Below, piece after piece: positions 64-9,300 of a stretch of 16,611 nt of DNA; within the stretch, counting starts at the first letter, position 1, and every line of letters starts with the position of its first letter. Source of the stretch: a virus; UHGV virus genome UHGV-0310400; one strand, written 5' to 3'. The notes beneath the pieces are model-generated. The model was not told the origin of the DNA, did not search any database, and was given only the letters and a program-made list of their open reading frames with translations. The position numbers and the translations under genes were made by a program.

Positions 64-140
64 GGAACGGTCTGCGTTGTCGGGAAGATACGTGATCTGA
101 TCCTTCAACTCAGCAAAAGTTCGATTTATTCAACAAAGCC
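1..140 (-). mobile_element. Terminal segment of an IS903-group (IS5 family) insertion sequence; the element continues beyond the window start
   Basis: Minus-strand sequence reading inward from position 140 is GGCTTTGTTGAATAAATCGAACTTTTGCTGAGTTGAAGGATCAGATCACG..., which I recognise from memory as the IS903/Tn903 terminal inverted repeat and adjacent sequence, with a few substitutions. The outermost base of the inverted repeat is at 140. Not verified by alignment. Confidence 0.75.
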
Positions 141-1384
141 AAATCACCAGCAAATAATCCGTGATCAGTAATGCGAATATAAGCGACTTGCTGATTTGCT
201 GCTTTCGTTATACCACCATAAACGCGAAGGCTGCGACTCATTGGGCGATCCCACAACTCTGCAACCTGCAGTTTATTTCCTCTCACGGTCCGCGTCTCAA
301 TTACAGCAAAAAGGCGATTTCTGACAACCCCCATACTCATGCAGTGATAGTTAACTGTGGGATAGTTTTCATGTAAATCTGTAAGCCATTCCGGCGTTGT
401 CCAGGTCTTCCCGTCATCTCCTGAGCGAACCCATGCAACATGGAGGTTATTTACACCATGGCGGTCTCCAGCCATAAAAGGCGCATAGATGACATTGTCA
501 TATACAAACGTTTTATCCTGCGTCCAGGCGTTGTACCACGGTGTATCTGTAATTTTAAATAACTCTCCCTGGATAAAATCTTCAGAAGCATAAAAAAGAG
601 GCTGGCCCGGTATTCTCTCAAATAAAAAACGAGCATTTTTAAATCGACTGACATCCGGAAGAGTTGATACTTTAAAAGTAAGCCCTAATCCGTCAATTTT
701 ATAACCTGGAGATGAGGCTTCAAGGCACGCGCTTATTGCAGTGGAATCGTCATTTATACCATCACCAACAGCTCCAAAATCTTTGGGGCTAATAGCATCA
801 CGCATTTTATCCTGGAACGTTCGGTACACAGCCCCAGAACCATACTGAATAAACCAACCAAAACCACCAACAACTCCGGCGATTGCAGCATCGACATAAT
901 TACGCATTGAGCGATTATTTACAGCGTCCTGCTCAAATGATGGATCTGCAAGGTTAGAAATTTTGTTTTGCTTTGCATCGTAATATTTTGCAAGCAGAGA
1001 GGGCTTCATCAATGCACGTCTGAACCACCCAAAACATTGCTGGATCAGCATCGTCAGGTAGTCAAAGGCATCTTCATGCACTTCGGGGAAAAATTTTCCC
1101 TGATTGCGAAGGTCTGTGTCCTGCACTACATCAAGCACACGATCTATCGTAATTCGCCATCCAGTAGCAAGCGGAGACGGAAGAACCACAGAACCGCCAC
1201 TATAAGTGCCCGCCCCAGTTACCGTATAACCGGTATCCAGGACCAATTCTGTTACGTTCCCGTTCAGGTCAGACACCTGAACAACCAGGTCTGATTTTCT
1301 GAAAATTCGAAAAGTATACGGAAACGATGTCGTAACGCCGTTACCGGTGTATTCGTTGTGGTCAACTTCGGTTGAGACCGTCAT
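110..1384 (-). pseudogene. Tail fibre/tailspike gene (T7 gp17 position), 3' end truncated by IS insertion at 140/141; native sequence is 141-1384
   Basis: The 424-aa ORF has an N-terminal segment (EYTGNGVTTSFPYTF...VLDTGYTVTG...) resembling tail-attachment domains of podovirus fibres and tailspikes. It carries a DFGAVGDGINDDSTA motif (plus 758-781) typical of pectate-lyase-like beta-helix depolymerases, and an Asp-box-like SGDDGKTW (plus 401-424). The last 10 codons and the stop lie inside the IS inverted repeat (110-140). SD GGAG precedes the ATG at 1384. Confidence 0.6.
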
Positions 1385-1487: not shown

Positions 1488-1504
1488 ATTACCTTTCGGG
1501 TAAT
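1488..1504. promoter_or_regulatory. 17-bp dyad operator-like site, copy 1 (ATTACC-TTTCG-GGTAAT)
   Basis: Perfect 6-bp inverted half-sites separated by 5 bp, in the divergent intergenic region between the tail fibre gene and the 85-aa gene. Same half-sites recur at 2608, 2701 and 3768. Confidence 0.5.
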
Positions 1505-1540: not shown

Positions 1541-1560
1541 TACTGTATAAACATACAGTT
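1541..1560. promoter_or_regulatory. LexA (SOS) box
   Basis: TACTGTATAAACATACAGTT: CTGT (1543-1546), 8-nt AT-rich spacer, ACAG (1555-1558). Matches the enterobacterial LexA consensus TACTGT-N8-ACAGTA. Lies about 20 bp upstream of the SD/ATG of the 1580 gene. Confidence 0.7.
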
Positions 1561-1579: not shown

Positions 1580-1837
1580 ATGCAGCAGTATCACTATCCA
1601 CTGGAAGACGGATTTACCGAAAGGATTCACACGCCGGGAGGCGTCAGGTCACTGGTGGAGGGATCGCACTTGATGAAATTACTCCGGGATCTCGATAAGG
1701 ATGGATTTAATGTCGATGGCCCACTTGCCGAACTGACTGCACTGATTAACTACGTCACCAGCTCACAGATGTCTATGCAGGATCTGCAAACACATCTCGA
1801 CTATTGTGCCGAACAATTACGAAAACAAACCCGGTAA
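1580..1837 (+). CDS. Small (85 aa) SOS-controlled antirepressor-like protein, paralogous to the C-terminal domain of the Bro-N antirepressor at 2986-3696
   Basis: ATG at 1580 is preceded by GGAGA (1568-1572). The track ORF from 1457 would run through the operator and LexA box, so the shorter start is preferred. Residues GVRSLVEGSHLMKLLRDLDKDGFNVDGPLAELTALINYV...DLQTHLDY align by eye with GVLGLTENSLLMNLLNQLQEDGHDVSGAAAELTTMFCYI...DIQTHAEY of the 2986 gene. Confidence 0.6.
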   Translation: MQQYHYPLEDGFTERIHTPGGVRSLVEGSHLMKLLRDLDKDGFNVDGPLAELTALINYVTSSQMSMQDLQTHLDYCAEQLRKQTR

Positions 1838-1860: not shown

Positions 1861-2588
1861 TATCGTTTCGCTTTGTGCTCGTCCCAGCACGTTTTGCACC
1901 ATGCCATTAAGCCGTCCGCATTTTGATTATTAGGGTAAAAGCTGGTCCGTTTTCTGCGGACATTACAAATTGGGCACCACTTCATATGGCGTGTATTCTT
2001 TGGGCCATCGAGGCACCTTGCACACCACTTAGTCAATCCATCTGGATTTTTTGACGATTTCCGGAATTTGTCATATGGAAGGTTTATTCTGCATCGCAAA
2101 CACTGCTTGCGGCCACTTGAAACTCTGTTAGCTGATTCTTCTTTTGGCGGCGATACAGAAGGTATTCTTGCTGGCTCTGATACTGCCTGAGGTGCTTTTT
2201 TAGATGACTGAGACGATATGTCATCACCAGGGAATCTTCCATGATATGCCGGACGCGTTGACACTCCAGGTGGAAGCTCAGCTGTAAACGGCTTTGGCTG
2301 AATCAGTTGCCTCTCTTTTGCTAACTCCTGCTGTTTATAATATGTCTGGATTACCGCACTATCATAAGCAGGAGGTACGGAAATATCAGGCGCGTTACCT
2401 CCAGTTTTTTGAAACTGAGTAGATGTGTGTTCTATCACCTGTGTACGACTAATCGTTACCTCCCCATCTTCGGTCTTTATCGTTTTGTTCTGATTAACGA
2501 CCGTACGATCAGAGATCTTAGTCTTGTTCTGGTTGATAACGTAAATAATCACCGCAACCACACCAACAACTATCCAGAAAACTTCCAT
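1860..2588 (-). CDS. Membrane-anchored protein with N-terminal TM helix, Pro/Ser-rich linker and C-terminal tandem Cys4 zinc-ribbon-like repeats; function unknown
   Basis: 242-aa ORF. N-terminus FWIVVGVVAVIIYVI is hydrophobic. C-terminus has two repeats, CLRC-x22-WCARC and CPIC-x23-WCKTC, each with DGL just before the second Cys pair. Stop codon abuts the terminator hairpin. Confidence 0.6.
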   Translation of the reverse strand: MEVFWIVVGVVAVIIYVINQNKTKISDRTVVNQNKTIKTEDGEVTISRTQVIEHTSTQFQKTGGNAPDISVPPAYDSAVIQTYYKQQELAKERQLIQPKPFTAELPPGVSTRPAYHGRFPGDDISSQSSKKAPQAVSEPARIPSVSPPKEESANRVSSGRKQCLRCRINLPYDKFRKSSKNPDGLTKWCARCLDGPKNTRHMKWCPICNVRRKRTSFYPNNQNADGLMAWCKTCWDEHKAKR

Positions 2589-2607
2589 TGCTTTTCCTCA
2601 CAATAAC

Positions 2608-2624
2608 ATTACCTTAAAGGTAAT
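2608..2624. promoter_or_regulatory. 17-bp dyad operator-like site, copy 2 (ATTACC-TTAAA-GGTAAT)
   Basis: Perfect palindrome about 20 bp upstream of the 242-aa gene start (2588, minus), in the divergent region shared with the antirepressor leader. Confidence 0.5.
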
Positions 2625-2700
2625 ATCTTGCTTTCAGGTGATCAAGCGTTAAACGCAATCAACCAAATACGGTTGATTTTAATATTTCTTCGCGTTTATC

Positions 2701-2717
2701 ATTACCTTTGCGGTAAA
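2701..2717. promoter_or_regulatory. 17-bp dyad operator-like site, copy 3 (ATTACC-TTTGC-GGTAAA)
   Basis: Same half-sites, one mismatch in the right half. Located at the start of the long leader upstream of the Bro-N antirepressor gene. Confidence 0.45.
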
Positions 2718-2751
2718 TTTACATCGCACTCCTCTTGTGCCATAGTAATCG

Positions 2752-2829
2752 GGCACTGGCAAAATCCAGTGCCGGGATTGGCGTCCCGGGTTACTAAGTG
2801 GCGCATACCACGCCAGACGTGGTTTTTTT
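2752..2829 (+). promoter_or_regulatory. Structured leader upstream of the antirepressor gene: overlapping hairpins ending in a terminator-like stem plus T7 tract; candidate attenuator or small RNA
   Basis: Hairpin GGCACTGG-caaaat-CCAGTGCC (2752-2773) overlaps hairpin CCGGGA-ttggcg-TCCCGG (2772-2789). Then CCACG-ccaga-CGTGG (2808-2822) is followed by TTTTTTT (2823-2829). An alternative pairing TGGCG (2798-2802) with CGCCA (2811-2815) competes with the terminator stem. Confidence 0.35.
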
Positions 2830-2985
2830 ATGCGTTAAGCACAGCTATATCCGAATTATGGTGGGCTGGGCAGGGGTCCGAAAGGACGCCGGTACCACTT
2901 AGGCCGGTACGCCAACCTTGTCCAGTTCACCACCAGTAATTGGCGTTGCGGTGGTGATTAAAATCACTAAGTGGAGATAACCACC

Positions 2986-3696
2986 ATGGCTAATGCTCAA
3001 ACTTCCATCTTCAAATTTGAATCTGTTAACCCTATCCGTTCCATCATTATCGATGGCCAACCATGGTTTGTAGCCCAAGACGTTTGTAGTGCGCTGCGTA
3101 TCCAAAACGTCACCCAAGCACTTGAAAAACTGGATGATGATGAAAGGTCTATGTTCAACATAGGGCATGAACATCGTGCAATTTTTGACAGCCGAGTAAA
3201 AGAGATCAACATCATCTCCGAGTCAGGCCTCTACACACTGATCCTCCGCTGCCGCGACGCAGTGACACCAGGCACTATCCCCTACCGCTTTCGTAAATGG
3301 GTTACAGGTGAGGTTCTTCCTCAGATCCGCCGCACCGGAAGCTACATTAAAAACTCGCTCCCGCAGGAAGAACGCATAAAGATGGTTGCCGACCAGGTAG
3401 CCAACGCCACGGCGTCAGCAGTAATGCAGGCGATGAAGATAGAGAACAAAACCTACAGCGCCCCACTGAAGCCCGGCTACCGTAGCCTGATTCATTCGCC
3501 GTCTGGTGTTCTCGGCCTGACGGAGAACTCACTGCTGATGAATTTGCTGAACCAGTTGCAGGAAGACGGGCACGATGTATCGGGCGCGGCGGCGGAGCTG
3601 ACAACCATGTTTTGCTACATCGTTGGTGTGAGTAAATGCCTGCGTGATATCCAGACTCACGCGGAGTACATCAACGACAAAGCAGGATTCTTCTGA
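2986..3696 (+). CDS. Phage antirepressor with N-terminal Bro-N domain
   Basis: ATG at 2986 is preceded by GGAGA (2973-2977); the track ORF from 2971 uses an upstream GTG. N-terminus IFKFESVNPIRSIIIDGQPWFVAQDVCSALRIQN matches the Bro-N signature (F.F....IR....DG.PWF.A.DV...LG). C-terminal approximately 70 aa are paralogous to the 1580-1837 product. Confidence 0.8.
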   Translation: MANAQTSIFKFESVNPIRSIIIDGQPWFVAQDVCSALRIQNVTQALEKLDDDERSMFNIGHEHRAIFDSRVKEINIISESGLYTLILRCRDAVTPGTIPYRFRKWVTGEVLPQIRRTGSYIKNSLPQEERIKMVADQVANATASAVMQAMKIENKTYSAPLKPGYRSLIHSPSGVLGLTENSLLMNLLNQLQEDGHDVSGAAAELTTMFCYIVGVSKCLRDIQTHAEYINDKAGFF

Positions 3697-3740: not shown

Positions 3741-3769
3741 TTGCAGACCGGGGGTGAATAGCGTACTAT
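3741..3769 (+). promoter_or_regulatory. Sigma70-like promoter for the 3810-5411 operon
   Basis: TTGCAG (3741-3746), 17-bp spacer, TACTAT (3764-3769). The -10 element overlaps operator copy 4. Confidence 0.45.
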
Positions 3770-3784
3770 TACCTTAAAGGTAAA
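3768..3784. promoter_or_regulatory. 17-bp dyad operator-like site, copy 4 (ATTACC-TTAAA-GGTAAA)
   Basis: Identical to copy 2 over 16 of 17 bp. Overlaps the -10 and predicted transcription start of the cargo operon promoter. A second small inverted repeat CATGT-gttt-ACATG (3786-3799) follows. Confidence 0.5.
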
Positions 3785-3809
3785 CCATGTGTTTACATGA
3801 GGAGGAGAT

Positions 3810-4019
3810 ATGGGATTTTGGTTCGCTCGTACAAAAACGAGGGATAATGCACCCAGCCCTCAGGCAAAAAATACAGAAGTTCCGGCGTCAGCGCAGGTTA
3901 ACAAGCGTGGTGGTGTGTATATCTCATCACAGCAAATTTCTGAGCTTCCTGAGGTTAAGGAGATGCGTCGTCTCGCTGCTGCAATCGTTAAACAGGATCT
4001 TGCCACTGTAAGGAAATAG
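3810..4019 (+). CDS. Small (69 aa) hypothetical protein, first gene of the cargo operon
   Basis: Strong SD AGGAGG (3800-3805) 4 nt before the ATG at 3810. Stop TAG overlaps the GTG start of the next gene (TAGTG). Preferred over the alternative-frame ORF 3787-4011, which lacks an RBS. Confidence 0.5.
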   Translation: MGFWFARTKTRDNAPSPQAKNTEVPASAQVNKRGGVYISSQQISELPEVKEMRRLAAAIVKQDLATVRK

Positions 4020-4882
4020 TGTTGTTAGCTCTTCTAATTATCCCCATTCTGGTTAGTGGTTATATTATGATAACCGCTAACCAGTATCATTATTTCCGTT
4101 TATACCGACATGAAGGCCAGCTTCTTTATATGAAAGTAGCTGCATTAGGTACATATTGCCTTGTTGCTTCTGTAATAATTGCCGCATTTATAAAATATAA
4201 ATATCCTGATTTTCACCTAGTTCACGATATGGTGGAAACTTTTAATGTAACGTCAAAACCAGAAACAGATAGAATTTACATGTGGCTACTTCTTCTGTCA
4301 GTCACATCAATTTGCTTCTCTTTGTGTTATGTATCTTTTGTTTGGCTAAAAGATCTTCTTTTAGGTTGTTTTTATAAACGTGATATTTATGACAAAATAT
4401 CAGAGGCAATGAAAGCTAGGGTATTGCGAAAAACGTACTCCCAGGGTTCTTTAGATTTGCTATTGCTTGATGCAATCGAATCAGATCCTAAGAAACCAAT
4501 GTTAATTACTTTATCATCAAATAAAGTATACGTTGGAATAATAAATGGTTCTGGTGAGCCAACGGAAAATCAAGGGCCACACCAACACATATCTTTTGTT
4601 CCTTTAATGTCAGGGTACAGAAACAAAGAAAATTTATCTGTTACATTTACAAACGCTTACCCAGGTGAAATCCAAATTAAGCGCAGTGCTGCGATAAAAG
4701 GGATAAGCAAAAAGAAAGTTCAAGGTCTAGAAATTATGGTATCTATAGACGAAATAAGTCATATATCATGGTTTGACTTTGAAGTATATAAGGCAACAAA
4801 TAACAAAGTAGAAACAAAGGGTCATGTTGTTAATGTGACCAAAAATGGTCGCAACATATACTACAGAAGTGGCAGGAAATAA
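4019..4882 (+). CDS. Multi-pass membrane protein (about 3 TM helices) with a soluble C-terminal domain of roughly 170 aa; AT-rich cargo gene of unknown function
   Basis: 287-aa ORF. Hydrophobic segments LLALLIIPILVSGYIMI, MKVAALGTYCLVASVIIAAFI and YMWLLLLSVTSICFSLCYVSFVWL. Base composition is visibly more AT-rich than the flanking virion genes. GTG start is coupled to the upstream stop; an internal ATG at 4067 is an alternative. Confidence 0.65.
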   Translation: MLLALLIIPILVSGYIMITANQYHYFRLYRHEGQLLYMKVAALGTYCLVASVIIAAFIKYKYPDFHLVHDMVETFNVTSKPETDRIYMWLLLLSVTSICFSLCYVSFVWLKDLLLGCFYKRDIYDKISEAMKARVLRKTYSQGSLDLLLLDAIESDPKKPMLITLSSNKVYVGIINGSGEPTENQGPHQHISFVPLMSGYRNKENLSVTFTNAYPGEIQIKRSAAIKGISKKKVQGLEIMVSIDEISHISWFDFEVYKATNNKVETKGHVVNVTKNGRNIYYRSGRK

Positions 4883-4907
4883 ATTTTACGCAGTTTAGGT
4901 GGCTTAT

Positions 4908-5411
4908 ATGGATAATACTATCTTAGGCGCATTGATAGGTGCTGTTATTGCTATAGTTTCCACTTATATAAATGCAGGACAAGGATACAAAAACAGCATA
5001 AGATTAGAGCGACAAAAAATATTAAGGGATAAACGCGAGCAATTATTTATAAATTGTATACTTACTAAAAAAGTCATAGATTCAAGCACAATTACCATTC
5101 TCAATTTCGTAAAAAATGCCAGATACCACTCTGATAGTAAATTTGACGTATCAAGAGCGAATCCGTTGCAAACGATGGAAATGCTAATAAACATATACCT
5201 TCCTGAGTATAAAAAAGACTTACAAGAACTCAATAATGCGTATCAAGAATTTCACAAATACTACTCTCAATATACATGTGCACATACCTTCAAAAATATG
5301 CCTGATAATGAGAAGTCGAGGTTTATTGAGGAGGCTGATTTTTATGCAAAAAAGATATATGGCAAACTTAATGATATTAAGGACAAGATATCATTAAACT
5401 CAATAGTATAA
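4908..5411 (+). CDS. Single-pass membrane protein (N-terminal TM helix plus soluble domain of about 140 aa); AT-rich cargo gene of unknown function
   Basis: ATG at 4908 with SD AGGTGG (4897-4902); the track ORF starts at an upstream GTG at 4899. N-terminus NTILGALIGAVIAIVSTYI is hydrophobic. Very AT-rich. Followed by a GC-rich palindrome and the terminator at 5496-5513. Confidence 0.6.
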   Translation: MDNTILGALIGAVIAIVSTYINAGQGYKNSIRLERQKILRDKREQLFINCILTKKVIDSSTITILNFVKNARYHSDSKFDVSRANPLQTMEMLINIYLPEYKKDLQELNNAYQEFHKYYSQYTCAHTFKNMPDNEKSRFIEEADFYAKKIYGKLNDIKDKISLNSIV

Positions 5412-5519: not shown

Positions 5520-6371
5520 TCACTGTGCAGTTTTCGCTGATCGATTTTCAGCTCTAAATTCAAGAACCGTTTCAATATTTCTTTCCTTCAGCATATCAAT
5601 AACATTTTTATTCATTTGACTATCACTGGTTAATAACTGGTAAACGTCGCTTCTCTCTTTATCAGAGTTTTCTTTAACAGCTGCTTTGCATGCCAAATGC
5701 TTATTGAAATTTTCTACATCGCTAGTACAGGAATTTACGGCTGCTGATGAAATATCAGACGCTGAAGAAACACCATCATCCAAACGTTTTATAGCATTTT
5801 CTATACATGAGTTAAGGGAATAAACGACAACTGAGCGATACCCTTCAGACGCACACCATTCTAAATTTCTTGAAGGATCGAGTGGTTTTACTTCGCTGGA
5901 TTGAATTAACTTGTCAAAAACTGACTTATATTCAATCTGTTTTTTATCTATAGCCCATACTTCAGTAGCTGATTTATAATTCCCCGTATGCCTATTAACA
6001 TCAAATCCATGTTTTATAAGCAAATCTGCCCATGAAAGATTTATTGATTCATTGTTATGAGGCCATTTTCCTGTCAGAACCGCCCCCATAGACCCCATAT
6101 ATCCGCCATATGATGGTATAGCACCATGGCTCAGTAACTTCTCAGCAACCACAGGGCAATTAATTACATAAGAGGCGTAAAGCCCATTCCATAAAGCCCC
6201 TCTATAGTAATCGCCACGATTAGGTTCTTTTAAGTCGATAGCCTTTGATAATTGTTCACACGTTTTGCATGCATCAAAGTTATCCTTATTGCATTGCAAT
6301 GAACTGGCAGCTGTAGGATTTACAGAGACTATTGAAAGCACTATGCCAAAAAACAAATTTATTTTTTTCAT
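5520..6371 (-). CDS. Secreted/periplasmic protein with cleavable signal peptide; AT-rich moron coupled to the last virion gene; function unknown
   Basis: 283-aa ORF. N-terminus MKKINLFFGIVLSIVSVNPTAASS is a classical Sec signal peptide. Multiple cysteines in the mature part. Start lies 2 nt from the stop of the 1129-aa gene. AT-rich relative to the virion genes. Confidence 0.65.
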   Translation of the reverse strand: MKKINLFFGIVLSIVSVNPTAASSLQCNKDNFDACKTCEQLSKAIDLKEPNRGDYYRGALWNGLYASYVINCPVVAEKLLSHGAIPSYGGYMGSMGAVLTGKWPHNNESINLSWADLLIKHGFDVNRHTGNYKSATEVWAIDKKQIEYKSVFDKLIQSSEVKPLDPSRNLEWCASEGYRSVVVYSLNSCIENAIKRLDDGVSSASDISSAAVNSCTSDVENFNKHLACKAAVKENSDKERSDVYQLLTSDSQMNKNVIDMLKERNIETVLEFRAENRSAKTAQ

Positions 6372-6372
6372 C

Positions 6373-9300
6373 CTATTTCATCTGCTCTTCAACTTTATTT
6401 AGTAATGGTGATATCGCCCACAGGTTCTGAAAAGGTAGCATTTTACGGACCGCGTGGGTTTGCTGGCTGTCAAATTCTCCGTTAAGTACACCATTCGCAA
6501 CCGTCGCGGCATCACCGCCAAGATCAAAGGTAGGACCAAGTAAAGCACCAATAGCATTACGACTCTGAAACCTTGATACCGGAGGCGCACCAAACATCGC
6601 GCCAAGACCAAACCTACCACCGCTTATGTTCTCAACGGTATTCAGCGGCTCAGAGAGCCAGCCAAGCATTCCGCCCCGGTCGATCCCCTCTTTCACAAGG
6701 TTATTCCAGCTGTAGTCAATATCGCGACCGCTTAACTTCTGTTTCATCATATAGACCATTGAGCCAAGCGCAATCGTGCCAAGCGCACCAAGATAGAATG
6801 CAGCATCGCCCTGCTGGATACCAGATACCAGCACCCTGTTATGCTGTGCGAAGATAAACGTTTTGAACTGCGTGATCATCTTCCAGCCTTCTTTACTAAA
6901 AAACAGCGGTGTATCACCTACGCCAGGCGTTACAATCACTGAGTCTACATCTTTCAGCACTGCAGACTGGAAAATCTCTCTAGCGAAACGGTCATCCCAC
7001 AGATGACTATGCCCGGTTAACAGCCCGTCCATATCCTCTCCGTGCTTCCCGAATTGCTCCCCGATTCGACGCAGAACATCTTCATTGATGCCGACCTGTG
7101 CCATCTTCCGCATTTCACTTTTGGAGAGCGTGCCACCAGCAGAAACTTGGCGAGCCGCGTCAAGTATCCTCGACTGCACTATCATCCCAGACCATGATTT
7201 AAGTGCGCTGTTCCACTGATTCATCAGCGTCCAGTTACCGAATTTCTGCGTCATCCAGTTCAGACCTCGCTCAGCGGCGCTTCTCCGGCTATAGGGGTCA
7301 GTAAGATCCGCTATAGCCTTTGTACGCGTAGACAGGACATAATCAAGCCCAACGGCCATTTCTCGCAAATCCCTGGTTGCAATTTTCACTGAGTCCATAT
7401 TTTTAAGCATGCTTACCATTGGTCCGAGAGATTTTCTCAGGCCATGCTGCATCATCGGTCGCATCAGATCAGTTGCAGCGGAGACAGTCATTCCACCAAG
7501 CAAACGGAGGAAGTTAATATTCCTAGCAACTCGCCCGGCACGAACAAAGAAACTGCGTGGATCTTGAGGTGCACCGTAAGTACCAAGCAGTCGATCACGC
7601 ATAGCCGTAATATCCCTAATATCAGCCTCCCGTTGCTTCTCAAGAACTGCACGTCGTTTAGGTGTTTTAGCCTCTTTTATTAGCCGGGTATATTCCTCAC
7701 TAACCTGACGGATTTGCTCCCCCATATCTTTACGGCCAAACTGCGCAGTCAGCTCAATTTCTGGTGCCACCTGCCGGAGATAACTTTCCATGATGTAGTT
7801 AACATCTGATTCAAGAAAATCTTCTATACGCTCATCAGGAATAAGCAGCGTTCTGCTTTTAGTGAAACCAGCCCGACCAACGAGTCTCTCTGGGATAATA
7901 TCGGCTGGTACAAGCCCGGAAGGTGCGCCTATTATTTTATTCACGATCTCGTCAGCAGCGTCCTCTGCTTCCTCTCGGGATAGAGGCTCCATCTGCTTCA
8001 GTGCTCGTTCGCGGCTTGCATTCAGCCTTGTGGTTGAATTTGCCCGTTTTTGCAGTCGGCGAAGCTCAGAACGATATTTCCGTGGATTATCCAGCAACTC
8101 CATATGGCGCTGATAGACAGGAAGCTCACTCTTTGCCTGCGCTATATCATCAAGGCGTGTTTTAAGGTCAGAGCTTTCTTTCATCATTCTTGCCTGAAGT
8201 TTTTCTGATGAAGTCTCGGCCAACTCTTTTTCTATTCTTGTAAGACGCGCCTGTGTGTCAGTCTCCTGAGATATAAGCTTATTTCGTTTATCCAGTTCTT
8301 CCATGAGTAGAATTTTTTTACCAGACCATTTCTCCGCTTCAGCGATTTCACTAGCGAGAGCATCAGCGCGCGGTGCCGATTCCTCTGCAGTTTTTAGCAA
8401 TGAATTTATCCTTTCAATTCGCTGACCTGCCTTGTCAGCACCTTTGGCACTAATCCCTTGTATCCAGTTGGCAATTCGCCCTCTGAATTCAGTGCGGTCG
8501 GAAAGTATCTTATCGAACTTATAAATGCGGGGAAGATAACTTTTCGCCGTCACGACATCGATATCCTCAGGAAGGATCCCCAGTTCCTGCATACGGGCTT
8601 TTGTGATCTCGAAAATGGGGCGGATTCTGGCGGCTGCTTGTGAAACCTCAGGAATATCACTCTGATCACCACGGCGCATGGCCATGCCAACAGCTTCATT
8701 GAAATCAATAAAGTTCATCCTCTTCACGCCGCGGGCGCTAACAGATTTGCTGTACTGCTGATAAGCATCACTAGTGGCTTCCATCTGCTTATAAAGCATG
8801 GCGTCGTATTGCTTAATCTTAGTCTCGACTGCCGTAAACGTAGCCAACCCCTCATCATTTTTGGCGAAGAAATAGTTATTTTCGGCAAGCTGCTGGTTAA
8901 TCTGACGGGAGACAAGAGATGGTGATTGCGCCAAGCGGCCAGCAGGAGTGACACTCAACGTTTTGTTAGCAAGTCCAAGTCCAGCGAGCTGTTCCTGATC
9001 GAGTGTGGTATTGAAAACCTGAGCTGCACCAATGCTTTGAGGAGAATCCATACCTCGCAAATGATTACCTACTGAGTTAACCACTGCCTCGCGCGCGCTA
9101 GGTCCAGCAAGTAGCTGTGCACCAGCACCAAGGATCCCACCAACGAGAGCATCAACAACAACGTTCGATACGCTCTCCATCGGTGAGCGAGCTTCCTGAG
9201 TGGCCTGTAATGCGGCTTCTGATACTCCCCCACCAGCAGCATTCGCCAGGGCAAAACGCCCTGCCGTCTCAGCAATACTTCCTCCACGCGCTACCGCCCC

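Follow-up and report, generated by a model that had tools for sequence, protein, structure and literature searches.

A P1 immI-type RNA immunity cassette probably controls the Bro-N antirepressor of an epsilon15/phiV10-like prophage of Escherichia coli

How the antirepressor gene of a prophage is controlled from its own leader is the question raised by a 268-nt structured region (positions 2718-2985) in the genome UHGV-0310400, of which we analysed a stretch of 16,611 nucleotides, referred to here as the window. An earlier inspection of the letters (the sequence-only reading) had suggested that this antirepressor is controlled at the RNA level, and Rfam matches to isrK and C4, together with covariation, indicate that an RNA regulatory leader does precede the gene. 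We consider it very likely that positions 2702-2985 constitute a complete RNA immunity cassette of the P1 immI type, whose elements can be recognised by their identity, geometry, complementarity and covariation, and which would control synthesis of a Bro-N antirepressor.

The window is an epsilon15/phiV10-type prophage of E. coli, in which the cassette is flanked by a tail-fibre gene and by virion-protein genes. E. coli chromosomes contain identical (100%) copies of the cassette, and its identity is 86% to phage TL-2011b and 79% to phiV10. Of 5426 complete E. coli genomes, 472 have the cassette or a close relative of it, as do many phage records. The E. coli, TL-2011b and phiV10 records that we compared carry no RNA annotation at the cassette, and several records annotate an open reading frame (ORF) running across the RNA elements. 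The product of the regulated gene matches Pfam Bro-N (E = 9.6e-20) and PHROG 130 'anti-repressor Ant' (E = 5.2e-57), and its homologues carry the label BRO-N protein in E. coli, and in phiV10 and TL-2011b that of an anti-immunity or anti-repressor protein; across the family, the first gene downstream is often of an antirepressor type (Bro-N, KilA-N, AntA/ANT, Rha or ORF6N/P22_AR_C). The ORFs neighbouring the cassette had no matches in PADLOC or NCBIfam.

Folding of the leader (253 nt) gave a minimum free energy of -106.7 kcal/mol (z = -4.67), and none of 200 shuffled sequences was equally stable, so that its structure exceeds chance, in agreement with the structured leader proposed by the sequence-only reading. 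The two hairpins which that reading had picked out, and the stem followed by seven T residues, are present where it had placed them (Table 1). It had taken the hairpins to be mutually exclusive, which they are not, since they overlap by just two bases, and both the minimum-free-energy fold and the Rfam model contain them together, as adjacent elements.

Table 1 Features of the candidate RNA immunity cassette (window coordinates).
Feature	Position	Strand	Description
Operator-like palindrome	2702-2716		TTACC-N5-GGTAA; abuts the -35 hexamer; third operator copy of the sequence-only reading
Predicted cassette promoter	2718-2746	+	Found by consensus scan
Hairpin 1	2752-2773	+	GGCACTGG-CAAAAT-CCAGTGCC, perfect, 8 bp
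IsrK-type leader/terminated small RNA	2753-2829	+	77 nt; hairpin 1 (here 2753-2772), hairpin 2 (here 2773-2788), linker, intrinsic terminator
Hairpin 2	2772-2789	+	CCGGGA-TTGGCG-TCCCGG, 6 bp
a1	2778-2784	+	UUGGCGU; loop of IsrK hairpin 2; exact 7-nt complement of a'
b1	2794-2801	+	CUAAGUGG; IsrK linker; exact 8-nt complement of b'
Alternative helix	2799-2803 / 2811-2815	+	UGGCG/CGCCA; competes with the terminator 5' arm
Terminator-enclosing helix	2801-2806 / 2830-2835	+	GCGCAU/AUGCGU; in the minimum-free-energy fold
Intrinsic terminator	2807-2829	+	Stem ACCACG/CGUGGU (2807-2823), loop CCAGA, seven U (2823-2829)
C4-type antisense RNA	2854-2937	+	84 nt; long closing stem, two internal hairpins
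b'	2895-2902	+	CCACUUAG; loop of second C4 hairpin
a'	2909-2915	+	ACGCCAA; single-stranded joint of C4
a2-display hairpin	2928-2956	+	Stem CACCACC (2928-2934) / GGUGGUG (2950-2956); a2 in loop
a2	2940-2946	+	UUGGCGU; exact 7-nt complement of a'
b2	2967-2974	+	CUAAGUGG; exact 8-nt complement of b'; overlaps Shine-Dalgarno GGAG (2973-2976)
Antirepressor gene	2986-3696	+	236 aa; Bro-N domain and C-terminal domain; regulated cargo

The suggestion that a terminated small RNA is made here was borne out at the level of family membership, as the first ~77 nt correspond to IsrK: Rfam isrK (RF01394) matches on the plus strand over its entire length (67.7 bits, gathering score 50; model positions 1-77 of 77), and RNAfold recovers the IsrK fold. 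A permissive Rfam scan also placed c4-a1b1 (RF03163), described in Rfam as "a1, b1 targets of C4 antisense RNA", at 2740-2792 (E = 5.6e-10; model positions 1-53 of 53), with a score of 44.1 bits that lies just below the threshold of 46.7, a threshold exceeded in P1, Gifsy-1, CP-1639 and Stx2a phage. As befits an isrK locus, a predicted promoter stands immediately 5' of the match and an intrinsic terminator with seven U residues at its 3' end. The promoter consists of the -35 hexamer TTTACA (2718-2723), a 17-nt spacer and a TG-extended -10 element, TGcCATAGT (2738-2746), which ends 7 nt 5' of isrK model position 1 and predicts a transcription start at 2753. Gifsy-1 and Stx phages have a different promoter (TTGACA...TATATT), likewise directly 5' of isrK.

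The largest structure in the leader was absent from the sequence-only reading. It is a three-helix element which Rfam C4 (RF01695) matches over its full length on the plus strand (66 bits, gathering score 45; model positions 1-87 of 87), the E-values of the two full-length matches, isrK and C4, being 6.6e-13 and 3.5e-11. We propose that the main regulator is this C4-type antisense RNA, which would share both coding strand and transcript with its target, as do P1/P7 c4, the N15 RNA, P4 CI and Gifsy-1 STnc1160. RNAfold recovers the C4 fold (-43.6 kcal/mol), and in an alignment of 96 family members fitted to the model pairing holds in 98.1% of cells and compensatory change is seen at 19 of 23 pairs, compared with covariation scores of at most 0.1 in slid controls. 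On the basis of homology to the annotated ends of P1 c4 (744-820 of the P1 sequence L141, inside an Rfam match at 738-823), the mature RNA is predicted to span about 2860-2934. Its ends, GGUGG...CCACCA, resemble those of a tRNA, but ARAGORN found no tRNA or tmRNA. The 5' strand of the hairpin that displays a2 is at the same time the 3' strand of the C4 closing stem, and the two structures are mutually exclusive within one molecule; of 98 cassettes, 70% have runs of at least 6 pairs flanking a2, a share that falls to 27% on shuffling, and the sequences vary by lineage.

All of the conserved structure and both family matches lie on the plus strand, which bears on the precedent invoked by the sequence-only reading, the sar RNA of P22. 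The opposite strand encodes this cis-antisense RNA, and a sar-like antisense RNA across the ant ribosome-binding site of the window would likewise have to come from there. P22 immI and the window resemble each other in that an antirepressor encoded beside a tail-spike or tail-fibre gene is, in the window putatively, controlled at the RNA level, an argument by analogy only. At the window there was no sequence or structural match to sar, in Rfam scans that included a permissive one to E 5, and no minus-strand promoter-like site was present in 2400-3200. We regard sar-like control as extremely unlikely and sar as the wrong precedent for this locus.

The C4-type element carries two segments, a' and b', with exact complements both in the IsrK-type leader (a1 and b1) and in front of the antirepressor gene (a2 and b2). 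This is the arrangement expected of a C4 RNA, which lies on the same strand as its target and upstream of it, with the a1 and b1 copies still further upstream. In order to assess the strength of pairing, we calculated duplex energies of the loop against each target and compared them with shuffled sequences, given that nested folding is unable to represent loop-loop pairing. The C4 loop formed a duplex of -14.5 kcal/mol with IsrK and of -12.6 kcal/mol with b2, values that 5 of 1000 shuffled sequences equalled in each case. When C4 was co-folded with IsrK or with the ant leader, there was no net energy gain, because nested folding cannot model loop-loop contacts. The a and b duplexes are short (7-8 bp). 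Separately, the translation-initiation region of ant is itself structured and could repress translation without C4. The palindrome GTGATT-AA-AATCAC, which had been noticed upstream of the ribosome-binding site at 2953-2966, is present one base further to the right (2954-2967), and is incidental beside the abutting b2 site.

We then asked whether the pairing sites are maintained across related cassettes, which were drawn from phage records, IMG/VR and one pattern scan of 185,579 species genomes, and confirmed by a covariance model built from 13 phage copies; under this check the pattern-scan matches were mostly true C4 elements. The resulting family comprises 117 cassettes with sufficient flanking sequence. 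It contains 88 different b' loops and 16 a' variants, the latter counted with a search pattern that fixed the TTGG/CCAA core of the a sites and left three variable bases free. Across loci, b' and a' change together with both of their target sites, a three-way covariation. The window pairs CCACUUAG with CUAAGUGG and phiV10 pairs CCUUUUAG with CUAAAAGG, their a' being common to both and their b' different, and in Tyrion the a' pair is AGACCAA/UUGGUCU. Among 92 distinct cassettes, the median complementarity between b' and b2 was 8 nt for cognate and 5 nt for non-cognate combinations, and complementarity of at least 7 nt was found between a' and a1 in 100% of cognate versus 2% of non-cognate pairs, and between a' and a2 in 90% versus 2%. 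Furthermore, in 75 of 94 cassettes b2 ends 6-11 nt ahead of the start codon, at the position of the Shine-Dalgarno sequence. Protein coding by ORFs 2628-2939 (plus strand) and 2899-3174 (minus strand) was considered as well and is unsupported, the RNA covariation and the variable length of the upstream ORF speaking against it.

The terminator was detected independently by a consensus scan. Per-sequence scans of the terminator region across the family found a hairpin followed by a T-run between b1 and C4 in 75 of the 117 cassettes, and hairpins equivalent to that of the window are annotated terminators in phiV10 and N15. The alternative pairing which, according to the sequence-only reading, would disrupt the terminator does exist: the segment just 5' of the terminator, typically GGCGC, pairs with the terminator 5' arm, and in the window the energy of this helix is close to that of the terminator (-6.6 versus -7.6 kcal/mol). 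It shares 3 nt with b1 and 2 nt with the terminator 5' arm. Competing helices with 5 or more Watson-Crick pairs were found in 65% of cassettes versus 7% after shuffling, and b1 reaches with its 3' end into the 5' strand of the helix in 48 of 52 cassettes. Judged from these comparisons, the terminator/anti-terminator design is conserved and coupled to b1, a putative binding site of C4. Because b1 overlaps the competing helix, C4 bound at b1 should disable that helix and favour termination. The further helix enclosing the terminator (2801-2835) is possible in read-through transcripts only. It recurs with altered sequence in homologues (GCGACAA/UUGUCGC, GGACAC/GUGUCC and, in P1, CGGACA/UGUCCG), and runs of at least 6 pairs are found in 67% of cognate versus 40% of non-cognate combinations, a comparison of low power as the sequence is highly conserved.

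With a terminator and a conserved competing helix in place, the leader has the parts of the transcriptional attenuator suggested by the sequence-only reading, and in the simplest case a protein, ribosome or metabolite could switch these in cis without any RNA acting in trans. We consider such a self-contained attenuator highly improbable, as the leader has no leader peptide and the Rfam scans gave no match to a riboswitch or leader family, and as it would leave unexplained the 84-nt C4 element, the three-way covariation of the a and b sites and the placement of b2 on the ribosome-binding site. What stands of the attenuator idea is the switch itself, within a cassette that would be governed by C4.

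The operator-like palindrome in front of the promoter suggests how the cassette may be connected to the remaining regulation of the prophage. TTACC-N5-GGTAA occurs in 4 exact copies in the window (at 1489, 2609, 2702 and 3769), against 0.36 expected, and in 14 copies with at most one mismatch in the phiV10 genome, against 0.64 expected. Two of the phiV10 copies fall within the repressor/p41 intergenic region and one upstream of that phage's own cassette. Given these copies, including those of the repressor/p41 region, the main prophage repressor probably controls the cassette too, in the way that C1 controls P1 immI; we infer that this repressor binds the operator at 2702-2716.

Taken together, these elements suggest the following mechanism. 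Transcription would start at about 2753, from the operator-abutted promoter, and most transcripts would end at the weak terminator (2829), giving a 77-nt IsrK-type RNA which carries a1 and b1. The read-through transcript would contain the C4-type RNA, to be excised from it, which in P1 is done by RNase P at the 5' GG. The a' and b' segments of C4 could then pair with a2 and b2 of the antirepressor mRNA and, since b2 overlaps the Shine-Dalgarno sequence, C4 bound there would block translation of the Bro-N antirepressor, so that the prophage repressor is kept safe. C4 may also act on a1 and b1 of the nascent leader, blocking the anti-terminator helix and favouring termination, a negative feedback like that described in P4 and N15 for the homologous RNAs. 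Finally, free IsrK may serve as a decoy that titrates C4 and releases antirepressor synthesis, a role implied by the Gifsy-1 over-expression data. Processing, translation block, termination feedback and decoy action are inferred from analogy to these homologous systems.

The relative weight of the two repressive actions can be argued differently. C4 could act mainly on transcription, as has been described for P4 CI and the N15 RNA, with pairing at a1/b1 (and a2/b2) provoking premature termination, either at the leader terminator or further downstream, and occlusion of the ribosome-binding site being secondary. The same isrK and C4 pair is present in P4 and N15, the anti-terminator helix is conserved and overlaps b1, and the terminator of the window is weak, with an energy close to that of the helix that competes with it. 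Moreover, in Gifsy-1, mutations of a1 in cis increase basal expression, and IsrK supplied in trans raises the transcription of anrP 8-fold, as measured with a transcriptional fusion (PMC4825925, Table 1 therein). C4-favoured termination fits these two results as well as the mechanism reported for P4 CI. However, b2 is located on the Shine-Dalgarno sequence in most cassettes, which would be unneeded for pure termination, and in the same Gifsy-1 experiments the effect of IsrK on anrP translation, 139-fold, was far larger than that on transcription. A mainly transcriptional C4 is therefore possible but rather doubtful in our judgement; the two modes are compatible, and the choice between them is a matter of weighting more than a true alternative.

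One of the closest known counterparts of the proposed cassette is the isrK - orf45/STnc1160 - anrP - isrJ locus of Gifsy-1 in Salmonella, in which the isrK, c4-a1b1 and C4 models all match. The design is the same as in the window, a terminated IsrK RNA and a read-through transcript, with b2 located on the Shine-Dalgarno sequence of anrP. The a1, a' and a2 sites are identical to those of the window (UUGGCGU/ACGCCAA), whereas the b specificity is a different one (GGUGA/UCACC). Both IsrK and STnc1160 are abundant in lysogens (PMC7067206). Compensatory mutation in Gifsy-1 has validated the pairing of G28 and G31 with C162 and C159 (PMC4825925, Table 1D therein), and when we mapped these published mutations on the sequence, G28 and G31 fell in a1 and C162 and C159 in a', which means that the validated pairs are the a1/a' contact. 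The window differs in that no Rfam match to isrJ was found downstream of its cassette, and in that the cassette adjoins a tail-fibre gene instead of lying downstream of the antiterminator Q gene, so that the AntQ toxicity cascade has no visible counterpart.

The Gifsy-1 authors concluded that activation proceeds via translation of the upstream orf45 and not by titration of a C4-like repressor (PMC4825925). According to this model, IsrK opens the orf45 ribosome-binding site on the read-through mRNA and the antirepressor is made by translational coupling. The window is homologous to isrK-orf45-anrP and the AUGG at the 5' edge of C4 (AU followed by GGUGGG) is conserved; in addition, tagged Orf45 and AnrP were detected, and mutations of the orf45 start and stop codons lowered activation (PMC4825925). 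At the window locus, however, we found no translated upstream ORF of the orf45 type that could be coupled to the antirepressor: in place of the 45 codons of Gifsy-1, the ORF starting at AUG 2858 has 14 codons, lacks a Shine-Dalgarno sequence and ends at 2902, inside the b' loop and 84 nt before the ant start. Among 12 loci the length of this ORF ranges from 8 to more than 160 codons, and the authors themselves point to conservation of the nucleotide sequence but not of the peptide (PMC4825925). The conserved AUGG is explained by the C4 stem together with the RNase P cleavage site, which, as outlined in PMC5320573, precedes GG. As the upstream ORF is short and variable, coupling of the orf45 type is not the conserved mechanism and is inapplicable at the window, and we judge this explanation very unlikely there. 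Titration of C4 by IsrK would explain Gifsy-1 data otherwise ascribed to orf45. Constitutive co-expression of orf45/STnc1160 did not relieve IsrK toxicity (PMC4825925), a result which argues against a simple decoy model.

The cassette is a well-known kind of system, recognised by standard RNA family models, here in an unannotated copy without icd or orf45. No new kind of system is revealed, and the practical gain is better annotation: once the cassette is recognised, the antirepressor in epsilon15/phiV10-like prophages acquires a regulatory logic, and the a and b sequences predict immunity specificities. Two parts are mildly new, the family-wide evidence tying b1 to the terminator switch and the case for viewing the P1, P4, N15 and Gifsy-1 models as accounts of a single circuit. 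From the comparison of 117 cassettes emerges a possible way of reconciling the models of translation block, termination and IsrK activation, which were reported for different phages.

Of these systems, N15 and P4 show the terminating side of the design. Both contain isrK-like and C4 elements above gathering scores, in N15 upstream of genes 32-30, with the Ant gene among them, and in both, as we propose for the window, processing yields the regulator from the leader of the very transcript that it targets. Ravin et al. reportedly described, in 1999, premature transcription termination for the N15 anti-immunity (immA) RNA. The same mode of action has been reported for P4 CI RNA with seqA/seqC (as summarised in PMC4825925). 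P4 differs from the window in its target, which is replication genes and not an antirepressor, and in a longer distance from isrK to C4 (~108 nt versus 24 nt).

P1 and P7 show the translational side. Citron & Schuster (1990) and Hartmann (1995) are said to be the sources for repression by the C4 of P1/P7 and for its cleavage by RNase P. As outlined in PMC5320573 and PMC12197685, C4 of P1/P7, which RNase P cleaves, uses its a' and b' loops to block the ribosome-binding site. The order of elements in P1 immI, namely operator, promoter, a1, b1, C4, a2, b2 and start codon, is that of the window; the annotated P1 operon has a C1 operator, two promoters, a1, b1, c4, a2, b2 and the icd start, and the full P1/P7 set runs from the Oc4 operator and the P1c4/P2c4 promoters through a1, b1, c4, a2 and b2 to icd and ant1/2. 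The pairing sites have equal lengths (7 and 8 nt), and the spacings agree within 1-2 nt (a1 to b1, 16 nt in the window and 14 in P1; a2 to b2, 27 and 29; beginning of b2 to the start codon, 19 and, for the icd start, 18), except that the gap from b1 to C4 is ~8 nt shorter in the window. The C4 family scores are also similar (66 bits versus 68.8 bits in P1), and the P1 leader gives a full-length, sub-threshold isrK match with a terminator-like hairpin. In both cases a repressor operator, putative in the window, is found at the promoter and the cargo is an antirepressor. The specificities differ (P1 a1 is UUGACAG and b1 GUUAGUG), as do the antirepressors (a Bro-N protein versus Ant1/2 in P1/P7) and the host elements (an integrated epsilon15-like podovirus versus a plasmid myovirus). 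Moreover, the window has no icd, and b2 sits on the Shine-Dalgarno sequence of the antirepressor itself, unlike in P1.

Since the isrK and C4 pair is found in P1, Gifsy-1, N15 and P4, the RNAs studied there, P1 c4, Gifsy-1 STnc1160, the processed RNA of N15 and P4 CI, are homologues of the element described here. We tentatively go one step further and raise the possibility, which we hold with less than even confidence, that P1 c4, P4 CI, N15 immA RNA and Gifsy-1 IsrK/STnc1160 are versions of one conserved RNA-only circuit, of which the window would be a minimal version. If this is true, C4 would repress its own operon twice, at the ribosome-binding site through a2 and b2 and at the conserved anti-terminator beside b1, whose loss would force the leader to terminate, and terminated IsrK carrying a1 and b1 would sequester C4 in trans as a decoy. 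Antirepressor release would then have a threshold set by how much terminated leader there is relative to processed C4, and the b sequences would define the immunity specificities of related prophages; the window and phiV10, with a common a' and different b', differ in the manner of P1 and P7.

The translation-initiation region of ant, the Bro-N antirepressor gene, is itself folded (2950-2985), an outer helix (GGUGGU 2950-2955 with ACCACC 2980-2985) enclosing an inner palindrome (GUGAUU/AAUCAC, 2954-2967). Both b2, the target site of the C4 antisense RNA, and the ant Shine-Dalgarno sequence are thereby placed in an internal loop. The outer helix covaries in homologues, reading AGUGGU/ACCACU in phiV10 and GUGAUA/UAUCAC in a Klebsiella phage.

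In three phages an annotated protein-coding gene extends through isrK and/or C4 (Table), and the start codons of these genes have probably been annotated too far upstream. Other RNAs also occur around related cassettes. Type II hammerhead ribozymes lie near isrK/C4 in two IMG/VR contigs, one of them in L006 about 55 nt upstream of isrK and on the same strand, and a ryfA RNA lies about 1 kb from the cassette of Yersinia phage vB_YpM_41. Paired C4 elements, 100 to 4000 nt apart, were seen in six bacterial loci (L016, L052, L061, L068, L081 and L130), where the cassettes are arranged in tandem or lie close together; most of these loci belong to Pseudomonas and related bacteria.

Features of the window and of related loci.
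Feature	Sequence	Position	Strand	Remarks
Tail-fibre gene	window	110-1384	-	endosialidase domains fused to epsilon15-type N-terminus
TTACC-N5-GGTAA copies	window	1489-1503, 2609-2623, 2702-2716, 3769-3783		
LexA-box-like palindrome	window	1541-1559	+	TACTGTATAAACATACAGT; perfect, CTGT-N8-ACAG
Type II hammerhead ribozymes	L006 (IMG/VR contig)	721-790, 2899-2970	-	
Type II hammerhead ribozymes	L008 (IMG/VR contig)	2177-2269, 4771-4835	+	
'Ash family protein' gene	L134 (Hafnia phage yong2)	1288-1971		overlaps isrK and/or C4
Annotated protein-coding gene	L135 (Yersinia phage vB_YpM_41)	1639-1926		overlaps isrK and/or C4
ryfA RNA	L135	163-461	-	134.6 bits
'Putative antirepressor' gene	L136 (Salmonella phage 118970_sal3)	1131-2273		overlaps isrK and/or C4

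The palindrome TTACC-N5-GGTAA, which is probably the operator for the main prophage repressor, occurs in four exact copies in the window (0.36 expected) and, counted at up to one mismatch, in 14 copies in phiV10 (0.64 expected), at 32727, 32775 and elsewhere; the phiV10 locations include the repressor/p41 intergenic region and other early promoters. The copy at 3769 lies 5' of a variable slot (3787-5411, plus strand) between the antirepressor gene and a minus-strand 283-aa gene. In the window, three ORFs occupy it (74, 287 and 170 aa), with matches to PHROGs 3630 and 36918, both of unknown function, and a weak, sub-threshold YtoQ/nucleoside deoxyribosyltransferase-like match; PADLOC and NCBIfam searches of these ORFs returned no matches. 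In the E. coli locus L001, which shows 100% identity over the 441-bp cassette region (2560-3000), three small ORFs (6250-7031) fill the slot instead.

The tail-fibre gene, annotated as frameshifted in its RefSeq copy, contains End_N_terminal and the starts of the catalytic beta-propeller and of the beta-barrel. It may encode a decayed K1-capsule-specific tailspike.

Shortly downstream of the LexA-box-like palindrome, the only CTGT-N8-ACAG in the whole window, starts an 85-aa ORF (1580-1837, plus strand) homologous to epsilon15p19 and phiV10p24, with the operator copy at 1489-1503 nearby. The C-terminal domain of the Bro-N antirepressor (aa 155-228) is 42% identical to this ORF. The ORF looks like a second, small, SOS-controlled antirepressor alongside the RNA-controlled Bro-N one, a candidate in the style of 186 Tum and the Gifsy antirepressors.
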